This document shows positions 24,034 through 63,733 of a stretch of 64,000 nucleotides of DNA, in pieces (position 1 is the first letter of the stretch; each line of letters opens with the position of its first letter). The stretch is from the NCBI GenBank assembly GCA_000004695.1, contig CM000155.2:2912001-2976000 (forward strand), written 5' to 3'. This DNA is from Dictyostelium discoideum. Taxonomy: Eukaryota. The translations under genes were made by a program, and so were the position numbers. The notes under the pieces are model-generated. The model ran no database searches, was not told the DNA's origin, and saw only the letters and a list, made by a program, of their open reading frames with translations.

Positions 24034-24106
24034 TGCTCGATGCAGGGATCGAACCTGCGACCGTGGCGTTATTAGCACCACGCTCTGCCGACTGAGCTAA
24101 TCGAGC
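24034..24106 (-). tRNA. tRNA-Ile (anticodon AAU), 73 nt.
   Basis: The minus-strand read 'GCTCGATTAGCTCAGTCGGCAGAGCGTGGTGCTAATAACGCCACGGTCGCAGGTTCGATCCCTGCATCGAGCA' folds as a cloverleaf: acceptor GCTCGAT/ATCGAGC, D-arm GCTCAGTCGGCAGAGC, anticodon loop CTAATAA, T-arm GCAGGTTCGATCCCTGC. The anticodon arm is near-identical to known eukaryotic tRNA-Ile-AAT. Confidence 0.9.
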
Positions 24107-24456: not shown

Positions 24457-29811
<5,355 letters not shown>

Positions 29812-34848: not shown

Positions 34849-35689
34849 CACTCGTTCAGATTTATCAAGAAGAAATCCAAACAATTCTCATGTCCTTGCC
34901 GCAAGATTGGATGACTATGGTAGATACCATTATCAACAAGAACCATTATATCAAGATAAAATGGCTAAAGAAGCCTTCAAATTGGCTAAAGCTGAAAAGA
35001 AGAATGAATACGTTGCCAATAAAGCAGTACTTCAAAAAGAAGGTCTCATTAGAGCTGTTGAAAGAAATGATAAACTTAATAAAACTCAAATTGCACCTGA
35101 AAGACCAATTTTCAAGAATGATACTATGGTTATTGAAGAACCAGTGCTTACAAATACAATTGTTTACGAAACAGTTCCAACTACTTCAACTTCACAAATT
35201 TTAATTCCACAAGAAACAATCATTACTGAAAATAAAACATTTGAACAACCAACTTTAGAGAAACAAACAACTACAACAACCACCACTACTACAACATCAT
35301 CATCATCTGAAGGTAGCTCAAATGTTGCCCCTCCACAAGAAACTTTTGTTCCACAATTAGAAAAGGATGAAGCTCCAATTTATAGAGAAGAAGTTGTTTT
35401 GGTTCCACACATTGAAGAGGATACTTTTGATTCTGGTAATCAACAATTAAGTTATTCTGAAATTACTCAAGTTCCAGTTCAAATGACAAGTAGTGAATTT
35501 GGTGGTGGTGGTGGCAACAATAGTGGTTCTTCAGGTAGAAAAGGTAAAAAAGGTAAAAAACAACAATATCGTAAAGAAATCATTACAAAACAATCAACTG
35601 ATGGTGGTAAATCTTGGACAAATGATTCAAACTTGGCTGGTGATAATGTTGAATTTATTCAAGAACAAACAACAATTAGAAATCAATAA
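34849..35689 (+). CDS. Hypothetical protein, 5'-partial; the ORF is open from the gap edge. The annotated 'M' at 34907 is a TTG codon, so the real start is upstream in the gap. Lys/Glu-rich N-region, Thr-rich middle, GGGGNNSGSSGRKGKKGKK near the C-terminus.
   Basis: The reading frame is open from 34849 (first base after the Ns) to the TAA at 35689: '...RSDLSRRNPNNSHVLAARLDDYGRYHYQQEPLYQDKMAKEAFKLAKAEKKNEY...'. Codon usage is good. Confidence 0.5.
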
Positions 35690-36896
35690 ATTATTATTTA
35701 ATAAAAATATTTAATAAAATTTTATTAATATTTTTTTAATTTAATAATTTTTTTATTTATTTTTATCATCTTTATTATTATTAAAAAAAAAAAATATCAA
35801 TAAAATAGTCAAAAGAAAATTGATATTTAAAAAAAATAAAAATAATCATTAATTTATATTATAACGAATTTATTAACTAATATCAATAATTCGTTTTAAT
35901 ATTAAAAATAAAAAATAAAAAAATATAAAAAAAAATTTAATTATTATAATAAAAAAAAAATTAATAAAGCTTGTATAATTTTAATAATTTGTAATTAATT
36001 TATTTATATTTAAAGTAGGTTATTGTTTATATAATTACTAGTTAACGGATATTAATTTTGTTTAATCTATTTGAATCTACTATACTATATCCATTTTGAT
36101 TTCTTATAAATCAAATAAAATAATTACTAAAAAAAAAAAGTAAAAAATCAGGTGAAAAAAAAAGAAAAAAAAAAAAAAAACCCATTTTTATCTAACCAAA
36201 ACCATTTCATTACAAGTCAAATTTGATAATCTTTTAAATATGACAATATTATTTTATTTGAAAAAAAAAAAAAAAAAAAAAAAAAATTCACCCAAAATCG
36301 AATTAAAAAAAAAAAAAAAAAAAATTCAAACCAAATACCAAAGATTTCCCACCCCTAATTCTTAAAAAAAAAAAAAAAATTTAAAAAAAATTTTAAAAAT
36401 AAAAAACCCCTTTTAACATAAGGAATTTAAAATATTTAAATAAAAAAAACTTCCCCAAACTTATAACCCCCAATTTGCTCGACAATAATTAATTAATTAA
36501 TTAATTAAAATTTTTTTTTTTAATTTTTTTTTTTTTAATAATTAAAAAATAAAAAAAAAAAAACCCTTTTTTTTTTTTTTTTTTTTTTTTTGAAGGGAAA
36601 AATTAAAAATGAAAATTTAAAAATCCCGGGAAAAAATTTAAAAAAAAAAAAAAAATTTCCTTCCAAAAAAAAAAAATTAAAAATAAAAAATTCTGGGGGG
36701 GGGGAAAAAAAAAAACCCCCAAATTTTAAAAAAAAAAAGGGCCCCAAAATTTTAAAAAAAAAAAAAATTTTTTTTTTTTTTAAAAAAACCATAAATNNNN
36801 NNNNNNNNNNNNNNNNNNNNNNNNNNNNNNNNNNNNNNNNNNNNNNNNNNNNNNNNNNNNNNNNNNNNNNNNNNNNNNNNNNNNNNNNNNNNNNNN

Positions 36897-38768
36897 CAAA
36901 AATTGAAATTAATGGTAGTACTACTATACCCTTTGAGATCAAAAGAGGAGTTAAACAAGGAGATCCACTATCACCCACCCTGTTCGTCCTTGTAATAGAG
37001 GCTTTAGCTAGAAAAATTTTACAAGATGACCGAATTACTGGCCTTCCTCTAAACAACAGCAACCACAGAGAGAAATTCCAAAGCTTTGCAGACGACTCGG
37101 CTTCAATGGTCCCAGACTCTCAACAACTTGAATTAGTACTACAACACTTCAATTCGTTTTGCAAAGCCACTTCCTCAAAACTAAACATCGACAAATCTTC
37201 ATCAATTCTTATAGGCAACCCAGACAATACCAACCAAAGAATTCCAATATCTACAAATCCAGAAAGATACTTGGGATACTTCTTCACAGGCAAAGGGATA
37301 ACAAGAAAAATGCCAGAAATATTAAACACAATAAGATCATCCTTAGTACTATGGAAAACCACTGACTCAACAATCAAAACCAAAACCAACATCCTCAAAG
37401 CATTCGCACTCTCTAAATTAACCTACTATTCATATGTAGAGAAATTTAAGGAAGAGGAATTAAACCAAATCAATAAATTAGTCGAATGGTTTTTATCGGC
37501 ACCAAACAACAAAAATGCTAGTGGATTTCAAGTTATTAATTTAATGAGAACCAAAAGAGCAAGATACCCACTAAAAGTAGGAGGCTGGAACATTTGGAAT
37601 ATAGAATTGAGACAACTGGCGCAGAAACTTTGGATCATAAACCAATTCATCCTAGCACTAGAAACCAAACAAACAAACTCATCTCATTACAAAAGCTGGG
37701 AATATCAGATCCAAAAAAACAAATTCACATCCAGATACCTAAAAGAAAACTTAGACGAATGGAACAAAATAAGAATAAAAAAAGCAATCTTCAACAATAA
37801 TCTCACATCCATAAAAAACGAAAATGGACAACCACTTTCACTGGCAGAATGGTATACCACAATTCAAGACCAAAATCCAACCATCCCTAAAACGGAATTC
37901 CAATCATCTCTAAACTTAAGAGGCTACAGCTATAATCAACTCTTCAACAACATACTGAAGATAAAAGACCATAAAACAAGAGACACAATGTTTAGATTCC
38001 ATGCCAGATGCCTTCCAATAAACTACCTTCACAACAAACAATGCCCACTCTGCAAAGAAGATATGAGCAAAGACCCATACGGTCACCTGTTCTTCTCATG
38101 CAAGAAAACAAAACAATTCATAAAAATAAATAAACTCAAAAATTTCATCTATATTACCACAGGCAAAGGTAAAAACTGGCACCATACAAGAATTAGGCAA
38201 AATAACAATTTCATTAATAGAATAACTCCAAAATTATCACCGACAGCCAAAAAAGATCAAGAAGTGAATGCAGATTACGCCAACCACAGATTCCACAAAG
38301 AATACTTTGAATGGAACTATAAAGCAATAGACTATGATCTAACCAGATCATTCGCATATAGAAACCTAATGGCCCTTATCCTCCACAACATTTGGATTTG
38401 GATTTGCAATCAAATATACAGTGAAGATCCTTTAACAGATGAATCACTATCATACAGCTCCCTTCTAAAGAAATGGCACAAATTGGCCACTCTAGAATAC
38501 ATCAAAAAAGCAAAAGATCTGAAAAACTTATCAGCAAAAGACCATAATAACTTCAAAGATCCTAAGATCCTTCTCACTTCAACGATCAAGCTAAGAAAAA
38601 CAAAAGCTAATTACTATTGTATTCCAGAATCATCTCTCCCAAATATTATATCTTTTGATCAATTCATATGATTAAAATAACCCTTCAGCTTAAATGATAA
38701 GCCTTTAAATAAATATTAAATAAAACTCGTATTAACACAGATGGACATATATCAATCTTGTTAATCCA

Positions 38769-38800
<32 letters not shown>

Positions 38801-38810
38801 TTGTATTAAT
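36897..38810 (+). mobile_element. Non-LTR retroelement (TRE family, probably TRE3-type), 3' portion: ORF2 reverse-transcriptase C-terminal half to the stop at 38671, a 3'UTR and a poly(A) tail at 38775..38810. The 5' part is lost in the N-gap (36797..36896) and in a low-quality stretch.
   Basis: 'IKRGVKQGDPLSPTLFVLVIEAL' and 'FADDSA' are the RT B' and C motifs. A C-terminal Cys/His-rich segment follows (CPLCKEDMSKDPYGHLFFSCKK). The element ends in A33. A fragment of this same sequence recurs at 41788..42410, downstream of tRNA-Lys. Confidence 0.8.
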
Positions 38811-39995
38811 AATTTCCAAGCCCTTAGAGATTTACCAATTTGATTTATTTTAAATGAATTAACAGGAAAGTGAATCGATGAAAACTCTCCAGGTGTTTCA
38901 TTTTGAGAAATCATTTAATTTAAAAAAAAAAAAAAATATAATTGTTGGGCTTGTTTTCATTCTTTTTAAAAATATCATTATTACTAAAATCACCCATAAA
39001 TACACCATATAAACCTTATTTTCTTTTAAATTTATATCGAGTTATCAATAATTGATCATTTTTTTAACGAGATCCATTTAGGTATGTTATTTTTAGAATT
39101 TTAAAAATTATTTTTTTTTAAAAAAAAAAAACCAAAACAATCATAATTTAATATTAAAACTTATAAATAAAAACACTAAAAACACAAAAATTATGAATAA
39201 AAATAAAAATAGAAAAAAACAAATATAGATTTAAAATTCCAGTAACCATGGTAATTTATTAACCCGGATTAAAATATTATAATTGGGGATATTACATTTG
39301 GAAAATCTAAAAATTAATACCATTTTGAAAATTTACAAAAAAAAAAAAATAAAAATAGAATTAATCCCTGGTATTAATAAATAATAAAAAATTAAAAAAT
39401 AAAAATAAAAAATAATATTTTTTTAAAATAATGGGGATCATTATTTTTTTAATAAAAAAAAAGTGATTACCAATTTTAAAGAAAGAAACCAGGTTAAATA
39501 AATAATTAGTTTTTTTATTATCAAAGTTGAAAAATCTAAAATGACATTGAAAAGATATTATGATCTGGCCTATCACTTTTAATAATTTACTAAAATAGAA
39601 GATATTTTTTAACATGCGGCATAGGTTATTATAAAATTACAAAATGTCAGTAGTGGGCACAAAAATGAATAAAATTTAAATAAAATTTAAATAAAATTAA
39701 AATAAAAAAAATTAAAAAAATCTTGAAAAAAAAAAAAAAGATATTTTTCAAAAATTATAGGAATAATGGCTTTTCAAAAATAATTAATATGGTTAAAATA
39801 TCTAATTTTTCATTTTTTTTTTATTTTTTATTTTTTTTTATTTTTATTTTTTTTTTTAGATTAAAAAATATCTGATTTTATTAATTTTGATTATTTTTAT
39901 TTTTATCCTGGTATTTCTTTTTTTTTTAAAATAAAAACAAAATTTTTTTTTTTTTTTATTTTTTAATATTATATTTATTTTTGTATTTGTAAAAA

Positions 39996-41079
39996 ATGAG
40001 ATTATTTCTTTTATTAATTACTTTTATTGCATTATTTGGTGCTATTAATGCATTTTCAGGTGTTGATATTTCACAAGGAAGTTCTGTAGGTGATTTCCAA
40101 TGTATGCTAAATCAAGGTTTTGAATTTGCAATCATTAGGTAATTATACAATTTATTAAAAAAAAATAAAACTTGTTTTAAAATATTTAAATATATTAATT
40201 TATAATTCAAAATTATAGAGGTTATATGGAAACTGGTCAAGTTGATCCAGAAGTTGTAAACAGTATTGCATGTGCACGTGAAGCTGGTGTCGAATATGTT
40301 GATACTTATCTTTTCCCATGTAAGAATGAAATTATTTTAATTTTAAACTTTATTTAAATGTGAATAATAAATTTATTTACAATTATTTTTTTAAAACATT
40401 TTCAGGTTTTAATTGTGGTAACCCACAAGATCAAGGTCCAGCTTTAGTATGTTTTGATTTTTTTATAATAATAATTATTTTATTTAGAAATATATATATA
40501 TTAAAAACCAATTCTAATATATAATTTAAAATTATTAATAGGTTAACTACTTAAGTGGATACAATGCTAACTATGGTATGGTATGGTTAGATATCGAATC
40601 ATCAGATTGGAGTGGTGATCAATCAGTATGTATCAATAATAGTAAACTTTAGAGTCTTTCATTTTTTTATTTAAACTACTAATATTAAAAATTTAATTTA
40701 AATAGGCAAATGTTGCATTTTTTGAAGGCTTAATTTCAGGTTTACAAAGTGTTGGTGCTCATATTGGTGTATACACCTCAGCTTCACAATGGATTCCAAT
40801 CATGGGTGGTTATACTGGTGGTTCCGAATTCCCACTTTGGGTAAGTTGTTTTTTTTTTTTTTTTAATTTTTTATTATTTTATTATAGATTTTATAGTATT
40901 ATTCGATATTAATAAAAACTCTTTCATTCAACAACAACAACAACAATTAGTATGCCAATTGGGATGGAGTACAAAGTTTTGATGATTTTTCAGCATTTGG
41001 TGGTTGGAGCACTCCAGCAATTAAACAATATAATGATGGTGGTAGCAACTGTGGTGTTGGTTATGATTTTAATTGGTGA
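39996..41079 (+). CDS. GH25 (Chalaropsis/Entamoeba-type) lysozyme, secreted, about 210 aa, six exons: 39996..40138, 40219..40319, 40406..40446, 40542..40625, 40706..40840, 40951..41079.
   Basis: Signal peptide MRLFLLLITFIALFGAINA, then 'GVDISQGSSVGDFQCMLNQGFEFAIIRGYMETGQVDPEV...' (the GH25 N-terminal block G.D.S..QG.ID...). The C-terminus is 'YANWDGVQSFDDFSAFGGWSTPAIKQYNDGGSNCGVGYDFNW*'. All introns have GT(A/ATGT)...AG boundaries and the phases are consistent (2,1,0,0,0). Confidence 0.8.
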
Positions 41080-41775
41080 GTATTGAAAAAAAAAAAAAAA
41101 GATAAAAAAAAGATTAAAAATTTAAACAAATACTAACCATTTTATTATTCTAATTTGAAAACCAGGTATCCAAATTAATATTTTAATTTATATTTAATCA
41201 GATTGGTTAAAAATTTAAAATAAATATGTTAAATGGTTTTTATACAAGCATAAATATATTTTTTTATGTTTTAAATATCCTATTTTTAAAAAAAGATAAA
41301 TTGGTGGAATTATTATTGAACTTTTTTTTTTTTGTTGTTGTTGAGTAGTTTATGTTAACCTCATGATCCTTCTTTATATTTGGTGGGATTATAGGTTTAA
41401 TTCTTTTTTTTTTTTTTTTTTTTTTTATATTTGATCATTTTAATAAAAAAAAATTAATGCATTAATCAAATGATTTTTTTTTAAAGTTGATTGCAAATCC
41501 ATATCCATATCTGGTGAAATATCATTACTATCAAGTTTTTATATGAGAAATGTGATAATCTATAGCCTTGTAACACCATATGAAGTGAGGTTTATGAAAT
41601 CTTATATGAATGTAGTCAATGTTGATTTCATGGTCTTTCTTCATATTAGGAGGTATAATTGGTGTGATTTTGTTTGTTGTTTGTTGTTTATGATTGTTCC
41701 GCCTGTTAATTTGAAGATGAATCCTGTTAATTTGGTATTGTTAATATATGATTTGGGAGCACTTGTTCTGAAATA

Positions 41776-41787
<12 letters not shown>

Positions 41788-41823
<36 letters not shown>

Positions 41824-42410
41824 TGGATTAACAAGATTGATATATGTCCATCTGTGTTAATACGAGTTTTATTTAATATTTATTTAAAGGCTTATCATTT
41901 AAGCTGAAGGGTTATTTTAATCATATGAATTGATCAAAAGATATAATATTTGGGAGAGATGATTCTGGAATACAATAGTAATTAGCTGTTGTTTTTCTTA
42001 TCTTGATCGTTGAAGTGAGAAGGATCTTAGGATCTTTGAAGTTATTATGGTCTTTTGCTGATAAGTTTTTCAGATCTTTTGCTTTTTTGATGTATTCTAG
42101 AGTGGCCAATTTGTGCCATTTCTTTAGAAGGGAGCTGTATGATAGTGATTCATCTGTTAAAGGATCTTCACTGTATATTCAGAATTCCAATATCTACAAA
42201 TCCAGAAAGATACTTGGGATACTTCTTCACAGGCAAAGGGATAACAAGAAAAATACCAGAAATATTAAACACAATAAGATCATCCTTAGTACTATGGAAA
42301 ACCACTGACTCAACAATCAAAACCAAAACCAACATCCTCAAAGCATTCGCACTCTCTAAATTAACCTACTATTCATATGTAGTATATTGTATTTCAGAAC
42401 GGAAAAATAT
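41788..42410. mobile_element. Rearranged TRE retroelement fragment of about 620 bp, present only in copy 1. It comprises T30, the reverse complement of the element's 3' end (about 38416..38774), a forward internal ORF2 piece (about 37236..37438), then a 19-nt inverted copy of the target site.
   Basis: 41818..42180 is the reverse complement of 38416..38774. 42181..42381 matches 37236..37438. 42382..42400 'gtatattgtatttcagaac' is the reverse complement of the empty-site sequence 'gttctgaaatacaatatac' seen at 44861..44879. Confidence 0.8.
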
Positions 42411-42490
42411 AACTTTGCAGGTTAGTTTTCTTAATTTTATTATTTGTATGGTAAAGTCATTTGGGTCCTTTTACAATATCTTCATAGCCG

Positions 42491-42501
42491 GAGTCGAACA
42501 T
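42491..42501 (-). promoter_or_regulatory. Putative external B box of tRNA-Lys ('TGTTCGACTCC' on the minus strand), about 35 nt downstream of the tRNA 3' end. The same box is at 44953..44963 in copy 2.
   Basis: B-box-like GTTCGAnTCC outside the mature tRNA, as for the tRNA-Ile gene. Confidence 0.5.
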
Positions 42502-42533
42502 GCGATCTCAACTATACTCAGTAAAAATAATTC

Positions 42534-42606
42534 GCCCAACGGGGGGCTCGAACCCCCGACCACCAGATTAAGAGTCTGGCGCTCTACCGACTGAGCTAGC
42601 CGGGCA
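42534..42606 (-). tRNA. tRNA-Lys (anticodon CUU), 73 nt.
   Basis: Minus strand: 'GCCCGGCTAGCTCAGTCGGTAGAGCGCCAGACTCTTAATCTGGTGGTCGGGGGTTCGAGCCCCCGTTGGGCG'. It is near-identical to eukaryotic tRNA-Lys-CTT outside the anticodon stem, with a canonical cloverleaf and the anticodon loop 'CTCTTAA'. Confidence 0.9.
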
Positions 42607-43998
42607 TTTTTATGAATTTTCAATTAAAATACTGGTATACGTAATAAATTTACTCCAATTGAAAAAAGATGAGTTTACAGGTGAAGCAATTTATTTTATC
42701 CAAAAAAAAAAGGTCAAATAATTATCAATTTAATACACAAAAAATAAATAGTTTATTGTTGTCTCTTTCTTTTGAAATTAATAAAATATTTTAATTTAAG
42801 AGTTTTTATTTCAGATTTTTTGTTCAATTGCACAGAACAGAGATTTAAAATTGTGGTGTGGCAAATAAAAAAAAAAATTATGAGAAAATAGATTATAATA
42901 GCTTTTATTAAATTACACTTATTTATACATTGATATTTAAATAGAAAATCGATTTAATTTTAATTTTATGAGAATAATAATTTCAAATAACTAATCCTCC
43001 ATTTGGTTTTTGAAAAACTTCTAAATGTACAGAGTTTGAAGTGGGCTGAGTATTTAAATTTACAACACTTTTTGATTGATCTTTTTTTGTATTGATAAAA
43101 CTTGTTGTTTTAACTGATTTATTTTTTGCCAAACAATCTAACAAATTTTTAAATCAATATGTTAGAAAATAAATAAAATAAATTTTTGAAAAAAATAACT
43201 TAATTAGTTTACACACATACCGTAAATCATTTTTTAATAAATTTTTTAAATAAATAAAAAAATAAATAAATTATATAAATAAAATAAAATATAATAAAAT
43301 AAAATAAATAATTAAAAAACTAGTTTAATAAATAAATATTTTTTAAAAAATAGATTAAAAAAATTGTAAATAAATTTTTAAAAAATGAATAAAAAAAAAA
43401 AACAGAAAATTGAATTTAAATATTTTATTCTTTTATTTTTGTATTTTTTTAATTTTATAATTTTTTTTAATTGTTTATTTTATAAAATAATGAAAATATT
43501 AATTTAATATCCATATTTGTACTTTAAGATTATTATTTATAAATCTTGTGATTTTGTTTATTTAAATAATTATTTCAAAGAATTATAATATGAGTTTTTA
43601 AAATTAAGGCAATTATAGTACACTTTTACATATAATTATACAATAAATATTTTAATTTTTTATTTTAAAAAAAAAAAATATTTAAAAATAAATTAAAAAA
43701 AAAAAATAACCACTCTTACTATTTGTTTTTATTATAATAATAATCGAATTTTATTAATTTTGTTTTTATTTTAATATTTTGCTCTATATTGAATTTCAAA
43801 TTCCATACGTCCTTCATTGTTTTTTTTTTTTTACACAGAATAATAACTGATTAAGATTTTTTTTGTTTATTATTTTTAAAAAAAAAAAAAAGAAACAANN
43901 NNNNNNNNNNNNNNNNNNNNNNNNNNNNNNNNNNNNNNNNNNNNNNNNNNNNNNNNNNNNNNNNNNNNNNNNNNNNNNNNNNNNNNNNNNNNNNNNNN

Positions 43999-46364
43999 AT
44001 ATTAATAAAAACTCTTTCATTCAACAACAACAACAACAATTAGTATGCCAATTGGGATGGAGTACAAAGTTTTGATGATTTTTCAGCATTTGGTGGTTGG
44101 AGCACTCCAGCAATTAAACAATATAATGATGGTGGTAGCAACTGTGGTGTTGGTTATGATTTTAATTGGTGAGTATTGAAAAAAAAAAAAAAAGATAAAA
44201 AAAAGATTAAAAATTTAAACAAATACTAACCATTTTATTATTCTAATTTGAAAACCAGGTATCCAAATTAATATTTTAATTTATATTTAATCAGATTGGT
44301 TAAAAATTTAAAATAAATATGTTAAATGGTTTTTATACAAGCATAAATATATTTTTTTATGTTTTAAATATCCTATTTTTAAAAAAAGATAAATTGGTGG
44401 AATTATTATTGAACTTTTTTTTTTTTGTTGTTGTTGAGTAGTTTATGTTAACCTCATGATCCTTCTTTATATTTGGTGGGATTATAGGTTTAATTCTTTT
44501 TTTTTTTTTTTTTTTTTTTATATTTGATCATTTTAATAAAAAAAAATTAATGCATTAATCAAATGATTTTTTTTTAAAGTTGATTGCAAATCCATATCCA
44601 TATCTGGTGAAATATCATTACTATCAAGTTTTTATATGAGAAATGTGATAATCTATAGCCTTGTAACACCATATGAAGTGAGGTTTATGAAATCTTATAT
44701 GAATGTAGTCAATGTTGATTTCATGGTCTTTCTTCATATTAGGAGGTATAATTGGTGTGATTTTGTTTGTTGTTTGTTGTTTATGATTGTTCCGCCTGTT
44801 AATTTGAAGATGAATCCTGTTAATTTGGTATTGTTAATATATGATTTGGGAGCACTTGTTCTGAAATACAATATACTTTGCAGGTTAGTTTTCTTAATTT
44901 TATTATTTGTATGGTAAAGTCATTTGGGTCCTTTTACAATATCTTCATAGCCGGAGTCGAACATGCGATCTCAACTATACTCAGTAAAAATAATTCGCCC
45001 AACGGGGGGCTCGAACCCCCGACCACCAGATTAAGAGTCTGGCGCTCTACCGACTGAGCTAGCCGGGCATTTTTATGAATTTTCAATTAAAATACTGGTA
45101 TACGTAATAAATTTACTCCAATTGAAAAAAGATGAGTTTACAGGTGAAGCAATTTATTTTATCCAAAAAAAAAAGGTCAAATAATTATCAATTTAATACA
45201 CAAAAAATAAATAGTTTATTGTTGTCTCTTTCTTTTGAAATTAATAAAATATTTTAATTTAAGAGTTTTTATTTCAGATTTTTTGTTCAATTGCACAGAA
45301 CAGAGATTTAAAATTGTGGTGTGGCAAATAAAAAAAAAAATTATGAGAAAATAGATTATAATAGCTTTTATTAAATTACACTTATTTATACATTGATATT
45401 TAAATAGAAAATCGATTTAATTTTAATTTTATGAGAATAATAATTTCAAATAACTAATCCTCCATTTGGTTTTTGAAAAACTTCTAAATGTACAGAGTTT
45501 GAAGTGGGCTGAGTATTTAAATTTACAACACTTTTTGATTGATCTTTTTTTGTATTGATAAAACTTGTTGTTTTAACTGATTTATTTTTTGCCAAACAAT
45601 CTAACAAATTTTTAAATCAATATGTTAGAAAATAAATAAAATAAATTTTTGAAAAAAATAACTTAATTAGTTTACACACATACCGTAAATCATTTTTTAA
45701 TAAATTTTTTAAATAAATAAAAAAATAAATAAATTATATAAATAAAATAAAATATAATAAAATAAAATAAATAATTAAAAAACTAGTTTAATAAATAAAT
45801 ATTTTTTAAAAAATAGATTAAAAAAATTGTAAATAAATTTTTAAAAAATGAATAAAAAAAAAAAACAGAAAATTGAATTTAAATATTTTATTCTTTTATT
45901 TTTGTATTTTTTTAATTTTATAATTTTTTTTAATTGTTTATTTTATAAAATAATGAAAATATTAATTTAATATCCATATTTGTACTTTAAGATTATTATT
46001 TATAAATCTTGTGATTTTGTTTATTTAAATAATTATTTCAAAGAATTATAATATGAGTTTTTAAAATTAAGGCAATTATAGTACACTTTTACATATAATT
46101 ATACAATAAATATTTTAATTTTTTATTTTAAAAAAAAAAAATATTTAAAAATAAATTAAAAAAAAAAAATAACCACTCTTACTATTTGTTTTTATTATAA
46201 TAATAATCGAATTTTATTAATTTTGTTTTTATTTTAATATTTTGCTCTATATTGAATTTCAAATTCCATACGTCCTTCATTGTTTTTTTTTTTTTACACA
46301 GAATAATAACTGATTAAGATTTTTTTTGTTTATTATTTTTAAAAAAAAAAAAAAGAAACAAGTG
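43999..46364. repeat. Copy 2 of the duplicated segment. It starts exactly at the gap edge and lacks the TRE-fragment insertion. It includes a second copy of the lysozyme last exon (44044..44172) and of tRNA-Lys.
   Basis: See copy 1. Unique sequence resumes at 46365 ('gtggagattaaatat'). Confidence 0.85.
44996..45068 (-). tRNA. tRNA-Lys (CUU), second copy, identical to 42534..42606.
   Basis: Identical 73-nt sequence at an offset of 2462 bp. Confidence 0.9.
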
Positions 46365-46490
46365 GAGATTAAATATATTTTGTGTATTAACACTTTTAAG
46401 TATCATTTTTAAAAAAAAAAAAAAAAAAAAAATTGTAAAAAAAAAAAGAATTTATTTTGTTTAGAAAAACTTTTTTTTGTTTAATTATTA

Positions 46491-46523
<33 letters not shown>

Positions 46524-47521
46524 TTAAATAATAAAAAGTGGTATTTAATAATATAACAATATCAAAAGGGAAAAAAAAAAAGAAAAAAAAAAATAAAAAA
46601 AAAAAAGGAATGACAAAAAAAAAAAAAATTGGTATATTTATTTTGAAAAATTAATTTAAATCTTGCAATTACTTATCTTGATAATCAAATAAAAAAAAAG
46701 AAATTGTACAAATTAATAATGGCAATCTAACTAATAAATAAAATTCCACCCCCCCCCCTCTCTCTCCTTACAAAAGGATGAATCAGGTTGAAGGGGGTAT
46801 TATTTTTATATACATTTTTTTTAACAATCAATGTACATATAAAAAAAAAAAAAAAAATTATTATTTTCATTTTCCAATTCTTAATTTTTTGTATTGAAAC
46901 AAATTAAAAATAAATTTTGAAAAATTGAATTACTGAATTAGCTTACTTTTTTTGGTGTTTACCACAAAAAAAAAAAAAAAAAAAAAAAATGAAAATTAAT
47001 TTTTTTTTTTGAATTTTTTTATATGACAATTATAATAATAAGTATTAATCATGAAAAAAAACACAACCTAAAATTAAAAAGGGGGTTCGGGTTTATTTTC
47101 ACAGCTTGGTACAGATTTAAAAAAAGGAAAATAAAAAAAAAAACAAAATAAAAAACCCCCCCTTCCAAAAAAATATTACCCCCCAAAAAACAACATATTT
47201 AAAAAATTTATGGTTTTAAAAATCATTAATTTTAATAATTTTTTTTTATCCATTTTTTATTAATTTTTTTTTTTAAAAAAAAAAAATATTTTTAAATTCC
47301 CTTTAAACAAGGAATAAAAAATCAAATCAAAAAAAAAAAATTTACCTACAACTTTTTAGGGAAAGTTTTTTTATAGAAATTAAATTTTTATAAAAAAAAA
47401 AAAATTAGGAAAATTAAGAATTTAAAAATAAAATACCATTTCAAAAAAATATTTTTAACTTTTTAATTATAAAAAAATATCAAAAAATGAATTTAATTGG
47501 AAAGTTTAATTACATTTTTTA

Positions 47522-47571
<50 letters not shown>

Positions 47572-47995
47572 ATATACTAACTTTTGTTTTTTAATTTTTT
47601 TTTAAAAAAAAAGACTCTTTCAAAGATCTTAGTTTATCAAACGAAAATAAACAATTTTTAAATGTTAGAAATAATTCAAATAATGGATTTCACAATAATT
47701 TTACTTTAATAAAAAATCAAAACAATTCAGTTATTAGTAATAATCCAGTTATTGTTGTTTCTTTTATAAAATAATATTAAAATCAAGTAAAAAAAAAATA
47801 ATATATATGGAAATAGAAATGATTTTTAAAAAAAAATAATAATAATCAATATATATAGAAATAGAAATAATTAAAAAAAAAAAAAAAAAAAATAATGACA
47901 ATCCGAATCTAAAAAAAAAATGTTGTAAAAATAAAAATTAATTTATTTATTTATTTAAAAAATATAAACTTTTAATTAATTAATTAATTAATTAA

Positions 47996-48745
47996 TTATA
48001 AATATGGTTTTAATAAAATTAAATCTAATTGTGAAATTAAGTTATTTAAATTTTTTGGAGGTATACCTTTAAAATTATAACGAATTAATTTATCTTGATT
48101 TGATTGTAATCTTGATTTTATTCTTTTTACAATTTCTAAATTATGATGAATTGCATTTAAATTAATATCTATTGGATCATTTCTATTGTCTAATAGATAT
48201 AAGAATATTTCATCTCTTTTATGACGCAATGCTTGAATTGGTACTAATGATGAAATTGGATAAATATTCAACTCTGTTAAATATTGAACCAATGCTAAAC
48301 TATCACTTGTTACAGCATTCTCCATAATGAAATTATTATCAATTAATTTATTTAACCCTCCATCTACACCATTTTGATGAATAAATTTCATAAATTCTAA
48401 ATCACCCCTATTAGCAATGAATTCACCAACTAATTTATCATTCCAAAGGAAATTCTCTTTAAAATTATAATAAAGATATTTAAATAATTCAAAATTTTCA
48501 CATGCTAATCTAATACCATATTTATATAAAAAATCATTATTATTATTATTATTATTTGAATTATTACTATTTTTATTTATTGCTGTTGAATTTCTAATAA
48601 TCTTTTTTACAAATTCAAATTCTTTATATTTTAAAATATATTGAAATCCAATTCTAACTTTATCTTTTTCTTTTAAATTTTCTTTTATTCCTTTTTTATA
48701 TAAAAAATTAAAAATAAATAATTTTTTAATATCTTTGTCTTCCAA
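47996..48745 (-). CDS. Hypothetical protein, 249 aa, with possible ankyrin-like helical repeats. The start is within 40 bp of an N-gap, so the N-terminus may be incomplete.
   Basis: ORF with repeated '...G(D/N)LEF(M/V)K(F/Y)(I/L)...NG.D...L...A...' segments (FIANRGDLEFMKFIHQNGVDGGLNKLIDNNF; NAVTSDSLALVQYL), flanked by AT-rich DNA. Confidence 0.45.
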   Translation of the reverse strand: MEDKDIKKLFIFNFLYKKGIKENLKEKDKVRIGFQYILKYKEFEFVKKIIRNSTAINKNSNNSNNNNNNNDFLYKYGIRLACENFELFKYLYYNFKENFLWNDKLVGEFIANRGDLEFMKFIHQNGVDGGLNKLIDNNFIMENAVTSDSLALVQYLTELNIYPISSLVPIQALRHKRDEIFLYLLDNRNDPIDINLNAIHHNLEIVKRIKSRLQSNQDKLIRYNFKGIPPKNLNNLISQLDLILLKPYL

Positions 48746-48883
48746 TTCATTTAAATTATTTAAATTTAAAATTTTTAAAGTTGNNNNNNNNNNNNNNNNN
48801 NNNNNNNNNNNNNNNNNNNNNNNNNNNNNNNNNNNNNNNNNNNNNNNNNNNNNNNNNNNNNNNNNNNNNNNNNNNNNNNNNNN

Positions 48884-48924
<41 letters not shown>

Positions 48925-49149
48925 TAAATATTTTTTTGGTAAATTAAAAATAAATAAATAAATAAAATAAAAAATATTATTAAAAAAATAAAATATATCC
49001 ATTTATATTATTATTTTTATTTTTAATAAAAGTTTTTTGTTTTTCCAATATTTATTTATTATATTATATTATTATTATTATAAATATTTTTTTATTTTTA
49101 TTATTATTATTAATATTTTTTTATTTTTATAATTTTTATTATTAGGTGG

Positions 49150-49939
49150 TTAATCAAAAGAAACATAATATTTTTTAATTTCATAAGAAATTTCAGTTTC
49201 AGCCAAATAGAAAGGACTTGTTTTCAAATTTTTAAAATATTTTAGAATGATTTGGGTGAATTGTTTATAGCAATTGAATAGTTTATCAAGAATCATTTGA
49301 AAGATTTTCATACCATTTTTAAAGTTTGGAAATTGTTGAGTGACTATTACATTCATTTCTTCGATACCAGATCTCCAATTTTGATAAAATTGTTTCAATA
49401 TTTCTTCAAGTATTTCTTTCTTCAATTGTGGATGGTTAATTTCTTCCAACGTATATAAACCAATCAATGGATACAAATCTCTAACAGTTGTAATAACATT
49501 TTTAAAATATACAAATGAAACCAATTGTTCTAAACAATATTGTTCAGCTTCTTTTTCAAATAATAAAATCCAATAATCTTTATCTTCATTACCGCTACCA
49601 ATAAATTCATTTTCATTATTATTATTATTATCATTATTATTTTCATCATTTTTATTACTATTATTACCATTAATTTTATTATTATTATTATTATTATTTA
49701 CAATATTATTATTACTATTTAATTTATCAGTTAAAATTGTTAAAATTAAATCAAAATTATTTAATCTAAAAATTAATTTTGAAAGATGATTTGATTTTAA
49801 ATCATCAGATAGTCTATTAATTAATTTATACATTTCAACTCTCATTATTGCTAAATTTTCATTAATTATTGAATGTGATTCTTTAATATTAAATAATAAA
49901 TGATCATTATCCGTATTAATTAAATCATTATTATTATTG

Positions 49940-49980
<41 letters not shown>

Positions 49981-51780
49981 ATTATTAAAATTATATAAAA
50001 CTGAAAATGAACCAATTAATTCACTATATCTTCTAACAACATAATGAGGTCTATTTTCTTCAATTGGTGATAAATCTTTAACATTTGCATCTCTAATAGA
50101 TTGAATATTCTCTTCGAATAATATTGTTAATCTTGATAGAGTTGAATTAATAATGAATTGAAATAATCTATCAGTACAATCTGATTTGAATTGAATTTTA
50201 CTTCTATATTTACTAGTGATTGATAATATTAATAACAAAGCCACTATATCATAAGTTGATGCTAAATAACCATTTAAATTCTCCATAAATAATGATTCTG
50301 ATTTACAAAATAAAAAAGTAGAACTATCTTTATTTGATAGGAAATAATCCTTTAGAAACATATTTTCATATGATACTAAATCAATGATAAAGAATAACAA
50401 TGATCTGAATATAACTTCATAGGAATATTTTATAGAGTCAGAGGCAGAGGAAGATTCGAAATTGATAGATTGGGGTTTTAATGGTGGAGTTTCGAGTTCA
50501 TTTAAAATCTGATACCTAGTTTCAATGGTGTAAATGGATGATTTACACTTTAATTTATTACTTTTACTCGAGAAGAATCCCCTGGTTTTACTCTCGTGCA
50601 TACCAATTAAATCATTTCTTGATGTTGGTTCCATTTGAAGTTTCTCCAAGAATGTTATATAACTTCTATAATAGGATGAATAGATTCTTTCAGCAATCTC
50701 TTTATATTGATCGAATAGAATTCTAGCAACACGTCTAGTATGTTTATAGAGGAATATAAATGCTTGTCTGTATAGGGTGAATTCTTGTTGTTTCGATTGC
50801 AACGATTGTATATCCTTGATTTGGTTGAATTGTACCATGAAAAACCTATGAATCTTATCCAAAACCACGTTCAACAGTTTCAGTGTCACCTCTTCAATTT
50901 CACCCGTTGCAAAGACTCCATCGATCTTTTGTGACGATATGTGGCCTATCTTCTTACTGAATATTGAAAGATATTGAAGATACTGATCGTTAACCTCACC
51001 TTGTGTCAATAGGTGTATCAAATCATCCGATATCGAAACCTCCTCTATAATCTTATCCAATCGTTCCACCACCTTCTTCCTATTGACACATTTGGAATTC
51101 TGTGTAATCGATAACTCTTGTAAATTTCTCATTTCTTTTGAAATGTTTGTTAATTCACCTTGAAATTTACTTAACATATCTTCGAAACCACTCAATAGAT
51201 CAGTACTCTCTGTTATGGTTTTATAAAGTATTGCAAATGTTTCCCTCTCATTAACATAATCTGGTATAATATCTTGATAAAGTTCATTCATCTCCTTATC
51301 ACATCTCTCTAACGATTCACCAACTTCTTTTGAAAATTTACTTAAATCAATACCCTTATCCAAACAATTTGCTATAACTTGCTCATCCTTTGCATAGCGT
51401 TCAATTTGATTTTCAAAATCTTCCATACCCTCTCCCATTATATTGATTGTTGTTAAATCTAAATCAAATTTAAATTCCATATTGTCATCTTTTTCAATTT
51501 GTTCTTTATTATTTGTATTGTTACTATTATTTTGATTTTTAGATTTTTTTGAAATTTCTATTGATTGTAAACTATTTGATAATGAATTTGTATCATCATC
51601 ACTTATAAATTCATTATTTGTTGTTACTGCTTCATCTTCTTCGTGATGACGAAATCCTTTACTTGTACCATTTAATTCTTTATCAAATACTTCATCAAGA
51701 TTTGAACCTGTATTTTTATTATTTTTTAAATTATTATTATTATTATTTGTATTATTATTATTATTACTATTATTATTCAT
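49150..51780 (-). CDS. vps52: VPS52 (GARP/EARP complex subunit, Sac2 family), 876 aa, single exon, with poly-Asn insertions.
   Basis: 'KDEQVIANCLDKGIDLSKFSKEVGESLERCDKE...LSKFQGELTNISKEMRNLQELS' aligns with human VPS52 'EDELVKEALKTGVDLRHYSKQVELELQQIEQKS...LGAFQSDLSSISSEIRTLQEQS'. 'EIAERIYSSYYRSYITFLEKLQ...DLIGMHESKTRGFFSSKSNKLKCKSSIYTIETR' aligns with 'ETLSKIYLSYYRSYLGRLMKVQ...DLMGVEDTAKKGFFSKPSLRSRNTIFTLGTR'. Confidence 0.85.
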
Positions 51781-52406
51781 ATTTTATATTTTTCACACTG
51801 AGTTGAAAATGTGAATTGCAAAAAATAAAAAAAATAAAAAAAAAAATAAAAAATTAAAAAATAAAAAAATAAAAAAAAAATCCAACAAAATTTTATTTTT
51901 TTATTATTAATAAAATATTTTCTATTTTTTCCATAAATTAATTTAAAATGAAAAAAAGTATTTAAATGAAAAAATAGAAAATATTTAATTAATAATAAAA
52001 AAATTATTCCCCTTACTTTTGGAGTTTATTTTTTTTTTTTTCCTTTTAAAGTAATCTATCAAAAATTTTATTATTAACCATAGTGATTTAAATTTTAAAT
52101 ACAACCTAAACAATATCTCCTAAATGGTGTGTATCTCCTTTCAATTTTTTTTTTTTTTTTTTGTTTATTTAACATTATTTTAAATAATTTCTTTGAATAA
52201 ATTCATCAAAATTTTGTGAGTTTGGAAAAAAAAAAAAAAAAATAAAAATAAAATAAAAAAAAAAAATAAAAAATAAAAAAAAAAGTGTGTTCATAAAATT
52301 TAATTTAAAAAAAAAAAAACAAATTTCAAAAAAAAAAAAAAAAAAAAAAAAACAACACACATAACACAAAAATACAAATAATTTTAAAAATATATATAAT
52401 ATAATA

Positions 52407-53415
52407 ATGAGTGATCATAGTGAAGCCATTGCAACATTTCAATCAATTACAGGTGCATCAAAAGAAGAATCTACATTTTATTTAGAGAGTCATGATTGGG
52501 ATTTAGAAGTAAGATTTTATTATTCTTAATTTTTTATCACTTTTTTATTTTTTTTTTTTTTTTTTATCCTAAATTATTTATTTTTTTTTTTTTTTAAAAA
52601 AATTAAAGAAAGCAGCACAAACTTTTACAACATTACAAGAAGAAGAAAATCAAAGAAATGATCAACCACAAATTGAAGAAGATTATGAAGATGAGGAAGA
52701 GGAAGATGATCATAGAGATCCAATGCCAGCATCAAGACCAGTATATAGTAAACCAGTTGCAAAAACTGTTAGTAAGAAAGCACCAGCAGGTGGTAGAGTA
52801 GGTGGTATTAGAACATTATCAGATTTCAATAATGATGATCATGATGATCATGATCATAGTGATGGTGATGATGATGAAGATGACAGATCTCAACAATATT
52901 TCACTGGTGGTGAAAAGAGTGGTTTGGTGGTTGAAAGTGCACCAAAGAAAGGTAAAAACGGTGGTAGTGGTGATATTGTAAACGATGTATTCGATAGTGC
53001 CAAAAGACATGGTGCTGTTGCATCCAATGAAAAGAAAGTTGAAAAACCAGATTCATTCGATAGTGTTGGTTATCAATTGGGTGCCACTGATCAAGGTAAT
53101 CGTAATGTAAGCAAACCAAAGGAAAAAGATCCAAATTCTCAAGTCGTAGAAGTTAAAGTCACCTTTTGGAATCAAGGTTTCACCATTGATGATGGTCCAC
53201 TTCGTAAGTATGATAATCCAGAGAATAAAGAATTACTCGATGATATTCAAAGGGGTATTGTACCACGTGAACTTCAAAAAAAAGCAACCACTCCAAATGG
53301 TTTATCTGTAACTTTGATAAATAATCATAATCAAGATTATGTTGAACCAGCAAAACCAAAATATGTTGCATTCTCTGGTGGTGGTCAAACTTTAGGTAGT
53401 TCTTCCACCTCAACA

Positions 53416-53447
<32 letters not shown>

Positions 53448-53754
53448 CAATAGAGCAACCACTACTTCAACTACTACAACTTCAACACCAAATGTATCAT
53501 CAATCAATGTAGATCAATCACAACCAACAACAACAGTTCAAATTCGTTTAGCAAATGGTTCAAGACTTTCAACAACCTTTAATCACTCTCATACCCTTCA
53601 AGATGTTATTAATTATATCAATAGCTCAAGTGGTTCAAATCAATCTTTTGATCTTTTAACTGGTTTCCCTCAAAAACCAGTCACAAACCCAACTTCAACA
53701 ACTTTAAAAGATGCTGGTTTATTAAATGCTTTATTAATTCAAAAATTAAAATAA
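52407..53754 (+). CDS. p47/NSFL1C-like p97 (Cdc48) cofactor with UBA-like, SEP and UBX domains. Exons 52407..52508 and 52609..53754.
   Basis: Exon 1 'MSDHSEAIATFQSITGASKEESTFYLESHDWDLE' is the UBA-like N-domain (p47: ...[24 protein letters not shown]). The SEP domain is 'VTFWNQGFTIDDGPLRKYDNPENKELLDDIQRGIVPRELQ' (p47: [40 protein letters not shown]). The C-terminal UBX is 'TTVQIRLANGSRLSTTFNHSHTLQDVINYIN...FDLLTGFPQKPV'. The intron has a GTAAGA donor and an AAAG acceptor, phase 0. Confidence 0.85.
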
Positions 53755-53852
53755 ATAATATTAAAATAATATGAAATAAATAAAAATAATAATAATAATG
53801 ATAATGATAATAATTGAATCCAGTTTTTAGTTGTTTGGTAATTATTTGTTTT

Positions 53853-54947
53853 TTATTCATCTTTTGATTTGTTTTTTTCTTTTTTATCTTTTTTTACTTT
53901 CTTTTTATCATCTTTAGAGGATGATTCACTCTTTTCTTTTTTATCCTTTTTATCTTTTTTATCTTTCTTTTCTACTTTTTCTTCATTATCTTTTGAAGAT
54001 TTACTCTTTTTCTTTTCTTTTTTATCTTTTTTTACTTTCTTTTCATCATCATCATCATTGTCATCGTCATCTGAATTTGATTTTCTTTTTTCTTTTTTAT
54101 CTTTTTTTTCTTTCTTTTCTTTCTTTTCTTTTTTATCTTTATTATCTTTTTTAACATGTTCCATTTCATTTTGATCATTATCTTTATAATTAATATTTTC
54201 ATTTTCATTTTCTAATCTTTGTTTTTTAGTATTTCTTAATTCATCTTTTTCTTCAACTAATTTTCTTTTAAAATCTTCATATTTTTGACCACCATCACCT
54301 TTTAATAATGATGGATCATAACGACCTTCATCTTGAGCTTTTAATCTTTCTAATTTACCAATTGGTGCATATTTTCTAAGAGTTCTACCTTTACATGCTT
54401 CAAATTCTTCTTGAAGTCTTTTAGAAGAATCAAAATTTAATTTTGATTTTAATTTATCATTTTCTCTTTTAATTGATTCTAATCTTTCTGTCTCTTCTTC
54501 TTTATTTCTTTTTTCAGTTTCTTCAATACTTTCTAAAGTTTCACTCTCTAATATAAATGATGATTTCTTAAATTGACCAAATACTAATGTTTTATTTTCT
54601 TCTTCTTTTTTATTTACTTCTTTTGTAATTTCATTCATAATTTTATCTTTTTTATTATTTTTACTTTTAATTCCACCTTTACATGATAAATTATTATCAT
54701 TATCATTATTATTATTGTTTTTGTTTTTATTATTATTAACTTTATCATTTTCATTATCAGTATCATCATCACTTTTTTTACTATTATTTACATCTGATCT
54801 TGATTCAAAAAGTTCATTTTGTTCTTCTGATCCTATTTTTTTATTATCCCAAACTCTATCCCACCAATTATTATCATGTTGAAATCCTGTACTACCAACC
54901 TATAAAATAAATAAAAAAATAAAAAAAAAGAATATTGTTAATAAAAC

Positions 54948-54978
<31 letters not shown>

Positions 54979-55115
54979 AATTTACTTACACCAAATGTAT
55001 TTTTTTTCTTATCAATATGAATTGCTTTTGTTATACCATCTCTATTTTTACCTAAACCATCTCCTCTTTTCCAACCAGTTTTACCCATCCATTCTTCGTA
55101 TTTTGAAAAATCCAT
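53853..55115 (-). CDS. PINX1/Gno1-like G-patch protein. Exons 54990..55115 and 53853..54899 on the minus strand, with a Lys/Asp/Glu-rich C-terminal half.
   Basis: Exon 1 'MDFSKYEEWMGKTGWKRGDGLGKNRDGITKAIHIDKKKNTFG' is a G-patch. Together with exon 2 'VGSTGFQHDNNWWDRVWDN' it aligns with human PINX1 'LEKMGWSKGKGLGAQEQGATDHIKVQVKNNHLGLGATINNEDNWIAHQDDF'. The intron has a GTAAGT donor and a TTTATAG acceptor, phase 0, and runs in frame into the 261-aa ORF. Confidence 0.75.
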
Positions 55116-55907
55116 TTTATTTTTAATATTATAGCAAAATGTTTTAAAAAAAAATTACAAAATATGAAAAGTTTGAAATTATAATTGTGATGGAATAAAT
55201 TTTTTTTTTTTTTTTTGAAAGGGACTTTTGTCGTTTTTTTTTTTTTTGTCGACAAAAATAAATTAAATTATTTTTTTTATTTTTTTTTTTAAACACAAGA
55301 AATTTTGTTAATATGTTTTTTTCTTCAATTATTAAAATTAATTTTAATTAAAAAAAAAAAAAAAATAAATAAATAAATAAAATCCAAGTTTTAAAAATAG
55401 AAAAAAAAAAAAAGAATGATAATAAAAAACCAAAGTTGGTAAATCTTAATTATTTATTCGGATAATTGCTATAAAAAAAAATAATGATATAAAATATGGT
55501 TTAATTAAATAAAAATAAATTTAAAAATAAATATTATTTATTTATTTTTATTTAATTATTTCTTTTGGTAGAAAAAAAAAAAAAGAAAAAAGAAAAAAAA
55601 AAAAAAAAAAAAAAAGAAAAAAAAGAAAAATAAAATTTTAATTAAATTGAATAAAATAATAAAATATATAAATATAATTAAAAAAATTATAGTAATCTTA
55701 CTTTAATATTAATTTCAAAGATTTTTTTTATTTTTATTTTTTTTATTTTTTTTTTTTTTTTCCAACGTTAATCAAAATATTGTATGAGCGCCGCACAAAA
55801 TTTCAAAATTTTTTTTTTTTTTTCTCTCGTGCCTAATTTTTCGTTATTTTCAAAATTGTTTTTTTTTTCTTTTTTCGCGTTTAGTTTTACACAGATACAT
55901 TATCACC

Positions 55908-56721: not shown

Positions 56722-56919
56722 ACAATTCTCCCTTATATAATAAAAAAAAGCTTTTCAAAAAAAAAAAAAAAAAAAAAAACCATATATTCATGTGTATACA
56801 TATTCACAATATTTAATATTTTTATTTTTCAATATTTTATTGATTACCAATTTGTTTTATTTATTTAATTTTAAAAATTTTATTTATTTATTATTATTTA
56901 ATATTGAAAATTTTATTTA

Positions 56920-60338: not shown

Positions 60339-60386
<48 letters not shown>

Positions 60387-60529
60387 GAAAAAAAAAAACA
60401 TTAATAAAACTTAATAACAATAAATAGTTTACAGATATTTTAAATATTATATATATACATATATGCAAAATTTTTAAATTGTATCAATATTTTGATAAAT
60501 ACAAATAAAAGTTTTATAGAAGATTAGAA

Positions 60530-63733
<3,204 letters not shown>

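Follow-up and report, generated by a model that had tools for sequence, protein, structure and literature searches.

The window, a 64,000-nucleotide stretch of Dictyostelium discoideum AX4 chromosome-6-type sequence, contains the GH25 lysozyme 4 gene (39996..41178, plus strand), whose seven exons give a spliced product of 213 amino acids identical to Q54BQ8; intron 5 extends from 40841 to 40950, exon 6 from 40951 to 41075, and the 13-nt exon 7 from 41166 to 41178. ARAGORN calls a minus-strand tRNA-Lys(CTT) gene at 42532..42606 and an identical one at 44995..45069. An external B-box-like motif, GATCGCATGTTCGACTCC, is found 25–42 nt downstream of the first of these (42490..42507, minus strand) and is represented a second time at 44953..44970; the external B box has a role in TRE3 targeting (PMC5911963). 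The same stretch includes a 5′-truncated TRE3-type copy (36897..38800, plus strand) made up of the C-terminal part of ORF2, the 3′ UTR and a poly(A) tail. This neighbouring copy encodes RVT_1 (E = 2e-10), and a protein search with it returned only unnamed reverse-transcriptase proteins.

A segment that covers the end of the lysozyme gene and the tRNA gene is written twice around a gap, and as a feature of the deposited sequence this repeat is real and far exceeds chance. Copy 1 (40906..43898, 2993 bp) and copy 2 (43999..46361, 2363 bp) agree without a single mismatch or indel over their first 872 bp and their last 1487 bp, long homopolymer runs included. Their identity is thus 100% over 2359 bp, and the sole difference is that copy 1 carries 634 bp at 41778..42411 where copy 2 has 4 bp (ATAT, 44871..44874). 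The gap between them (43899..43998) is exactly 100 N, as are the other five gaps in the window, and it borders the 3′ end of copy 1 (...AAGAAACAA, ending at 43898) and the 5′ start of copy 2 (ATATTAATAAAAAC, starting at 43999) exactly; just past copy 2, GTGGAGATT begins at 46362. An earlier note on this DNA had described two near-identical copies that end and begin precisely at an N-gap, with a boundary at 40906 inside lysozyme intron 5, and our analysis agrees on each of these points; we place the end of copy 2 at 46361 instead of 46364, however, and the extra segment is the 634 bp given above, not ~620 bp at 41788..42410. The duplicated part of the lysozyme model consists of exons 6 and 7, which recur at 44044..44168 and 44259..44271. 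No duplicated sequence was seen beside the other gaps of the 64-kb window.

The corresponding locus in GCA_054883475.1 (hereafter L002) is gapless and derives from Nanopore plus Illumina sequencing (PMC12745789); the strain behind it appears to be AX2-214 and not AX4. Window and L002 are 99.96–100% identical, with 0 indels in 7.2 kb, followed by one 6-nt indel at 47527 and by mismatches only of a low-quality type. L002 6902..15689 is collinear with window positions 36897..41777 plus 44871..48783, as a single copy with an empty site, and merging the two window contigs in this way reproduces the continuous L002 sequence. The right end of contig 36897..43898, which is copy 1, is collinear with L002 10911..11782 plus 11787..13273, and contig 43999..48783, whose left end is copy 2, is collinear with L002 10911..15689. 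In four wild relatives (L001 and L003–L005), both window copies map to one place. Neither a second copy nor a hidden lysozyme was found in L002, and the segment is single in all of the independent assemblies, of which L002 is probably AX2-214 rather than AX4. Since a near-identical assembly has a single copy, a real tandem duplication is without sign there. The L002 locus does contain two tRNA-Lys(CUU) genes, which are convergent and lie one on either side of the lysozyme gene: the downstream one (L002 11907..11981) equals the window gene at 42532..42606, the genuine downstream tRNA-Lys at this site, while the upstream one (plus strand) is absent from the window. The neighbouring TRE3-type copy starts less than ~100 nt downstream of this upstream gene in the AX2-type L002. 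The earlier note's proposal of two tandem tRNA-Lys(CUU) genes with a lysozyme copy hidden in the gap is not supported by this comparison, which reveals one copy and a convergent tRNA pair.

We conclude that the duplication is very probably false and that a single-copy AX4 locus has been written twice as the overlapping, unmerged ends of two contigs. Contigs 36897..43898 and 43999..48783 would then be two reconstructions of one locus that overlap by 2363 bp, copy 1 being the filled-site and copy 2 the empty-site version of the overlap. Over one point, reads would have fallen into two incompatible classes, with and without the 634-bp insertion, and the contigs would have remained unmerged because the crossing reads were split between these classes. 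Subsequent placement in tandem around a conventional 100-N placeholder would have caused lysozyme exons 6–7, the tRNA-Lys(CUU) gene and 1.3 kb of flank to be written twice. As the copies are identical and both stop at the gap, the boundaries of the apparent unit are contig ends: copy 2 starts and copy 1 stops at a contig end, the other two boundaries mirror these positions, and none is independent of the contig structure. Such a match is automatic for overlapping contigs; had a true duplication been assembled from Sanger reads, two coincidences at once would be needed to produce it. The earlier note had offered both overlapping contig ends and a real tandem duplication with a second lysozyme without choosing; the contig-end overlap and the single copy in L002 favour the former and count against the latter. 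The arrangement resembles false duplications of draft assemblies, in which two identical copies likewise flank a placeholder gap, one indel blocks their merging and a long-read assembly has a single copy. It differs from the usual case in that the host is haploid, so that the indel is not heterozygosity and must stem either from a real second copy or from sequenced DNA that was not uniform; we assume that filled and empty reads from a haploid clonal strain require heterogeneity of the culture or the libraries.

The poor quality of the reference around this locus also favours an assembly error. Read-tail-like junk occupies 36140..36796, the interval 47082..47532 has 32 mismatches to L002 that resemble base-calling errors, and neighbouring contigs differ in order and orientation from the AX2-type assembly. 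Chromosome 6 reads came ‘almost completely from only one clone direction’ (PMC2665215), and read-pair information was consequently lacking (PMC2665215). If the duplication is an artefact, the AX4 reference holds a spurious extra tRNA-Lys(CUU) gene (44995..45069) and a spurious lysozyme 3′ fragment, and we consider it highly likely that the recurrence of exons 6–7 at 44044..44271 is indeed spurious. The reference is also without the real upstream tRNA-Lys gene here, and its local contig order differs from that of the long-read assembly. For counts of tRNA genes or TRE targets and for read mapping at this locus, the merged single-copy sequence is advised.

The segment that distinguishes the copies is a rearranged TRE3-type insertion, present in copy 1 only, with the element sense on the minus strand of the window. 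It opens with 41 T on the plus strand (41778..41818), a minus-strand poly(A) tail that abuts target sequence ending in ...GTTCTGAAATACA. This is followed by a 361-nt TRE 3′-terminal piece (41819..42179, minus strand; end of ORF2 plus 3′ UTR) that corresponds, 2 mismatches aside, to ~38413..38773 of the neighbouring copy, by an orphan base at 42180, and by a 202-nt internal ORF2 piece in inverted orientation (42181..42382, plus strand) that corresponds to 37238..37439 with 1 mismatch and, within the element, precedes the 3′ piece by 973 nt. Next comes an exact, inverted 19-nt copy of the target, GTTCTGAAATACAATATAC (42382..42400, minus strand), which spans the nick and has 1 nt in common with the TRE piece; this 19-mer occurs once forward, at 44858 in the empty site, and once as its reverse complement, at 42382. 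An 11-nt filler, GGAAAAATATA (42401..42411), completes the insert, and its last 5–6 nt may be the target ATAT plus one extra A. The filled site is marked by the junctions GAAATACA-T(n), GTTCTGAAATACATTTTTTTT and CAGAACGGAAAAATATAACTTTGC, the empty site by GAAATACAATATACTTTGCAGG; the empty target site (44858..44876, plus strand) is identical to L002 around 11782. There is no direct target-site duplication beyond 0–1 nt. The first-strand nick probably fell between 44870 and 44871, on the downstream side of the tRNA and 124 nt from its 3′ end. The insert is absent from copy 2, L002 and the wild isolates. In an exact look-up of ORFs across assemblies of public runs, the filled-junction (42139..42594), empty-junction (44636..44917) and tRNA-flank (42471..42623) ORFs were all unrecorded; the empty site must exist and was also missed. 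The single Logan contig reached through exon 1 (L006) probably ends before 40906, to judge by its length and by where the gene falls within it.

The earlier note had regarded the extra segment as fragments of a TRE-type (non-LTR) element and the pair of copies as a filled and empty site beside a tRNA gene, and both claims hold: the pieces match 36897..38800 at 98–99.5%, copy 1 is filled and copy 2 is empty. Two other origins were rejected. The insert is no stretch of the neighbouring TRE copy misplaced by the assembler, since the two show 3 mismatches over 562 bp and differ in poly(A) length, which argues against an assembly mix-up with that copy; nor is the 2.4-kb repeat a giant target-site duplication of the insert, which sits in the middle of copy 1 and away from the junction.

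TRE3 inserts 40–150 bp downstream of tRNA genes and shares their orientation (PMC5911963). The insert derives from a reverse-transcriptase element, has its own 41-nt poly(A) tail and sits 124 nt downstream of tRNA-Lys(CUU); the piece that carries the poly(A) is oriented like the tRNA. The neighbouring copy obeys the same distance and orientation rule in L002. Like other TRE3 insertions (PMC5911963, PMC5006619), the insert combines a poly(A) tail and 5′ truncation with a same-orientation tRNA gene accompanied by an external B box, and the resident copy that it matches, which encodes a reverse transcriptase, is itself downstream of a tRNA-Lys gene. It departs from canonical TRE3 in several ways: a direct target-site duplication is lacking, the 5′ part is inverted, 973 nt are missing between the pieces, and both an inverted copy of 19 nt of target and 11 nt of filler are present. 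We class it here as TRE3-type, without subfamily. From this anatomy, a genuine but non-canonical TRE3 integration, polymorphic in the sequenced DNA, is the most likely origin of the insert. Together with the artefactual duplication, it forms an explanation of the whole locus to which we assign a probability of roughly 0.85.

How the insert may have formed can be reconstructed from its one available sequence. The TRE3 endonuclease would nick the plus strand 124 nt downstream of the tRNA gene, and reverse transcription would then start on the poly(A) tail. The growing cDNA would switch template to a second, abortive cDNA. This one would have started 6 nt further on, primed by the same strand of an intact target copy, either the sister chromatid or the cleaved flap. 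After 202 nt of this second cDNA and 19 nt of the target strand that primed it had been copied, and a few filler bases added, the product would be joined to the right flank, and no target-site duplication would arise. The insert shares features with L1 twin priming, foldback and flap capture (PMC11702581): an inverted upstream segment (37238..37439) precedes a direct 3′ segment (38413..end) that carries the poly(A), two products of reverse transcription meet head to head, and a short piece of target is captured. In classical twin priming, the second primer is the opposite target strand, a direct duplication of 12–18 bp results, and only 1–10 bp are gained or lost at the inversion point (PMC11702581). 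Here, by contrast, the second primer would be of the same strand on a second target copy, the target duplication is inverted, direct duplication amounts to 0–1 nt instead of ~12–18 bp, and the inversion is not contiguous, 973 nt having been skipped.

We tentatively propose, as a possibility on which we would not rely, that the filled and empty pair records a de novo TRE3 retrotransposition within the AX4 stock, with two same-strand initiations 6 nt apart, a head-to-head template switch and an inverted 19-nt target copy. If true, this would be a twin-priming variant through sister-chromatid or flap capture that has not been described for Dictyostelium TREs, and it would provide sequence-level evidence for TRE3 activity in laboratory culture. 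The biological residue is modest: one filled and empty pair indicates that TRE3 integration can err in a twin-priming-like manner without a target-site duplication, and it is a hint of TRE3 movement in the culture that was sequenced.

A real tandem duplication that arose in AX4 after the AX2 split, with a TRE3 fragment in unit 1, a junction in the gap and an empty unit 2, would place two tRNA-Lys(CUU) genes in tandem and add a second lysozyme, whole or partial, and its two copies would directly explain how a haploid genome comes to have a filled and an empty site. A large AX4-specific duplication of chromosome 2 is known (PMC12745789), and from the inverted 19-nt copy it follows that another intact target was at hand as a template when the insertion formed. 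Such a target could equally well come from a sister chromatid or a cleaved flap, however, and two coupled integration events at tandem units should delete or invert the interval rather than spare an intact empty copy. The near-identical independent assembly and the four relatives, all single-copy, the coincidence of both unit boundaries with contig ends, the missing junction sequence and the zero divergence between the copies, homopolymers included, make this reading very unlikely.

Two further readings accept the false duplication and differ over the insert. In one, the insert is itself an artefact of a chimeric or rearranged clone or of misassembled TRE reads, and the filled allele was never in cells. 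At first sight, its patchwork of two opposed, non-contiguous TRE pieces and an inverted flank copy is clone-like, the local reference is poor and AX2 has no insert; yet both flanks are intact and native to the locus, and four or five junctions would be needed. Two of the junctions are of the target-primed type, joining a target 3′ end to antisense element 6 nt apart, one of them at the poly(A) tail, and they lie at the distance and in the orientation typical of TRE3. Compared with the neighbouring copy, the pieces show 3 differences. Random chimerism would not give this structure, and we consider an artefactual insert very unlikely. In the other, the filled site is fixed in AX4 and the empty contig comes from another NC4-derived stock or library. 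The AX4 project pooled libraries from several centres with chromosome-enriched preparations (PMC2665215), and the empty site is the AX2 state; in all else, however, contig 2 cannot be told from contig 1, and reads from a foreign strain are without evidence, which leaves this origin highly improbable. It departs from the best explanation, a false duplication around a polymorphic TRE3 insertion, just in which allele forms the majority.

All six N runs in the window, which is strongly AT-rich, are exactly 100 N long, and one of them (43899..43998) separates two near-identical segments: copy 1 on its left (40906..43898, 2993 bp) and copy 2 on its right (43999..46361, 2363 bp). Direct comparison of the copies revealed a common 872-bp prefix and a common 1487-bp suffix with 0 mismatches and 0 indels, an identity that holds even across homopolymer runs of 14–29 nt; they differ only between prefix and suffix, where copy 1 carries 634 bp (41778..42411) and copy 2 carries ATAT (44871..44874). 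The earlier note's description of two such segments around an N-gap, one with an insert, is thus accurate apart from coordinates: copy 2 ends 3 nt before the 46364 previously given, and the insert is present, with limits shifted by ~10 nt. ARAGORN predicts a minus-strand tRNA-Lys(CTT) gene in each copy (42532..42606 and 44995..45069). Seven spliced exons (39996..41178) encode a 213-aa GH25 protein (Pfam PF01183) that matches Q54BQ8, the 'probable GH family 25 lysozyme 4' of D. discoideum AX4, at every residue; the window is therefore AX4 reference sequence of the chromosome-6 type. This exon model confirms that the boundary at 40906 lies inside lysozyme intron 5; the repeated segment takes in exon 6 together with exon 7, which is 13 nt long.

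We compared the locus with five gapless assemblies built from Nanopore plus Illumina data (PRJNA1300491; Holland et al. 2025, PMC12745789), retrieving it from each by exact protein match. One of these, L002 (GCA_054883475.1), is 99.96–100% identical to the window with 0 indels across 7.2 kb, and we infer it to be the axenic strain AX2-214. Its positions 6902..15689 align collinearly, first with window 36897..41777 and next with 44871..48783; the unit is present once, with an empty site (...GTTCTGAAATACAATATACTTTGCAGG...). In each of the other four assemblies (L001, L003–L005), both window copies map to one and the same position. At the true locus, two convergent tRNA-Lys(CUU) genes flank the lysozyme gene; the window writes the downstream one twice, and the upstream one is missing.

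We consider the duplication to be an assembly artefact, with a probability of roughly 0.85–0.9, and, judging from these sequences, probably no real feature of the genome. Of the two readings proposed earlier, the one in which two overlapping contig ends produced a false duplication is favoured because a near-identical assembly has a single copy, because of where the contigs end, and because the local assembly is poor. The limits of the 'unit' are contig ends only: copy 2 begins at the start of its contig and copy 1 stops at the end of its own, which follows automatically when contigs overlap, whereas a true duplication in a Sanger-read assembly would need two coincidences. Moreover, chromosome 6 reads came almost all from one clone direction and read-pair information is lacking (Glöckner and Heidel, PMC2665215), which would explain why contigs are loosely ordered and why an overlap went undetected. 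The project DNA must have yielded filled-site as well as empty-site reads, and in a haploid strain this implies either heterogeneity or two real copies. Heterogeneity could stem, for example, from a de novo insertion carried by only some cells of the culture, or by the DNA of a single library. A real tandem duplication specific to AX4 would likewise account for both classes of read, but on the same three grounds it is very improbable.

Sequence quality nearby is poor, and contig order departs from that in AX2. The first ~6.9 kb of L002 (1..6901) is missing from all 64 kb of the window, which has a gap (36797..36896) directly before the TRE copy (36897..38800). This stretch, with genes for Sec6 and an acetyltransferase, the upstream tRNA-Lys(CUU) and the 5' part of the TRE3-type copy, lies ahead of the TRE copy both in the AX2-type assembly and in wild isolates. 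The contig left of that gap (34849..36796) is unrelated to it, and its end (36140..36796) resembles a degraded low-quality read tail, with runs such as ggggggggaaaaaaaaaaaccccc, rather than genomic sequence. Window 48896..61796 corresponds to 85349..98233 of the AX2 record JBTAPE010000034.1 in the same orientation; in that record it lies left of the lysozyme block (111080..119867), ~13 kb apart, and in the window right of it. The lysozyme contigs therefore appear to be misplaced in the reference scaffold, unless a real transposition has occurred. Window 10542..14668 matches 80275..76149 of the same record, in the opposite orientation to the 48896..61796 block; at 10542, within a poly(A) run where there is no gap, the similarity breaks off, which may reflect either chimeric joining in the reference or a true breakpoint. 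A (TA)n microsatellite of ~90 units (14769..14950) begins right at a gap edge and is the likely reason for the contig break there. Finally, window 47082..47532 differs from L002 by 32 mismatches and a 6-nt indel amid otherwise identical sequence, and has doubled G/C patterns of the kind that low-quality Sanger reads typically give; these differences are probably base-calling errors in the reference.

The insert itself is composite. In minus-strand reading, the orientation of the tRNA, tRNA-Lys is followed by a B-box-like motif (GATCGCATGTTCGACTCC) and flank (...CCTGCAAAGT), a filler (TATATTTTTCC), an exact inverted copy of the 19 nt spanning the empty site (GTTCTGAAATACAATATAC), 202 nt antisense to positions 37439 to 37238 of the neighbouring TRE copy (1 mismatch), one orphan base, ~360 nt in sense from 38413 to the element's 3' end (2 mismatches), A41, and flank (TGTATTTCAGAAC...). 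There is no direct target-site duplication. Misassembly of the neighbouring copy as the source of the insert is ruled out by the 3 mismatches and a different poly(A) length.

TRE3 elements insert 40–150 bp downstream of a tRNA gene, matching its orientation, via the B box or an external B box (PMC5911963; PMC5006619). The neighbouring copy (36897..38800), 99% identical to AX4 DDB_G0285835 and coding for the C-terminal portion of a reverse transcriptase (RVT_1), conforms to this rule in L002, where its start lies downstream of the upstream tRNA-Lys, less than ~100 nt away and with matching orientation. The insert conforms as well, with its nick site 124 nt from the tRNA 3' end and its poly(A) distal; it is an oddly structured new member of a known family. 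Two wild isolates carry a different 5'-truncated TRE3-like 3' remnant (L003, ~11800..11900; L004, ~11790..11890) ~100 nt downstream of the same minus-strand tRNA-Lys, also in the same orientation. These are independent hits, marking the site as a recurrent target. Elsewhere in the window, a minus-strand tRNA-Ile(AAU) (24034..24106) lies 350 bp from an ORF of 1784 aa (24457..29811) in which Pfam recognises FANCI solenoid domains (E = 6e-54); this tRNA has no TRE beside it within the window.

Two junctions of the insert join the 3' end of the target plus strand to antisense element sequence. At one, ACA is joined to T41, suggesting a classical target-primed start on poly(A); at the other, ...ACAATATAC is joined to antisense 37439. 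As the two are 6 nt from each other and on the same strand, a second intact target copy would have to have served as primer. In the simplest path that we could construct, cDNA 1, primed at ACA, would copy 360 nt of RNA and then switch onto an abortive cDNA 2, primed at ATATAC on the sister chromatid or on a later-cleaved flap; 202 nt of cDNA 2 would be copied, followed by 19 nt of its DNA primer, before the strand gained a few bases and was connected with the right flank without a direct target-site duplication. Two target-primed junctions at the distance and orientation preferred by TRE3 would be unexpected in a cloning chimera. The topology resembles that of L1 twin priming, but two marks of that model are missing from the insert: its inversion point is not near-contiguous, and it has no direct duplication of 12–18 bp; the foldback and flap-capture junctions of L1 are closer (PMC11702581).

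Two further observations concern the lysozyme locus. At the 3' end of the gene (41073..41178), the AX4 model of 213 aa adds YPN via the spliced 13-nt last exon, and the annotations in all five long-read assemblies, each of 210 aa, end at an in-frame TGA directly after exon 6 (AAT TGG TGA). L001, a 'D. cf. discoideum' isolate, carries the sequence right of tRNA-Lys (window 42886..43898) in inverted form at 2493..3475, ~7 kb upstream of the lysozyme gene and beside a DDE_1 transposase-like gene (4456..6329); this inversion is a lineage-specific rearrangement of the locus.
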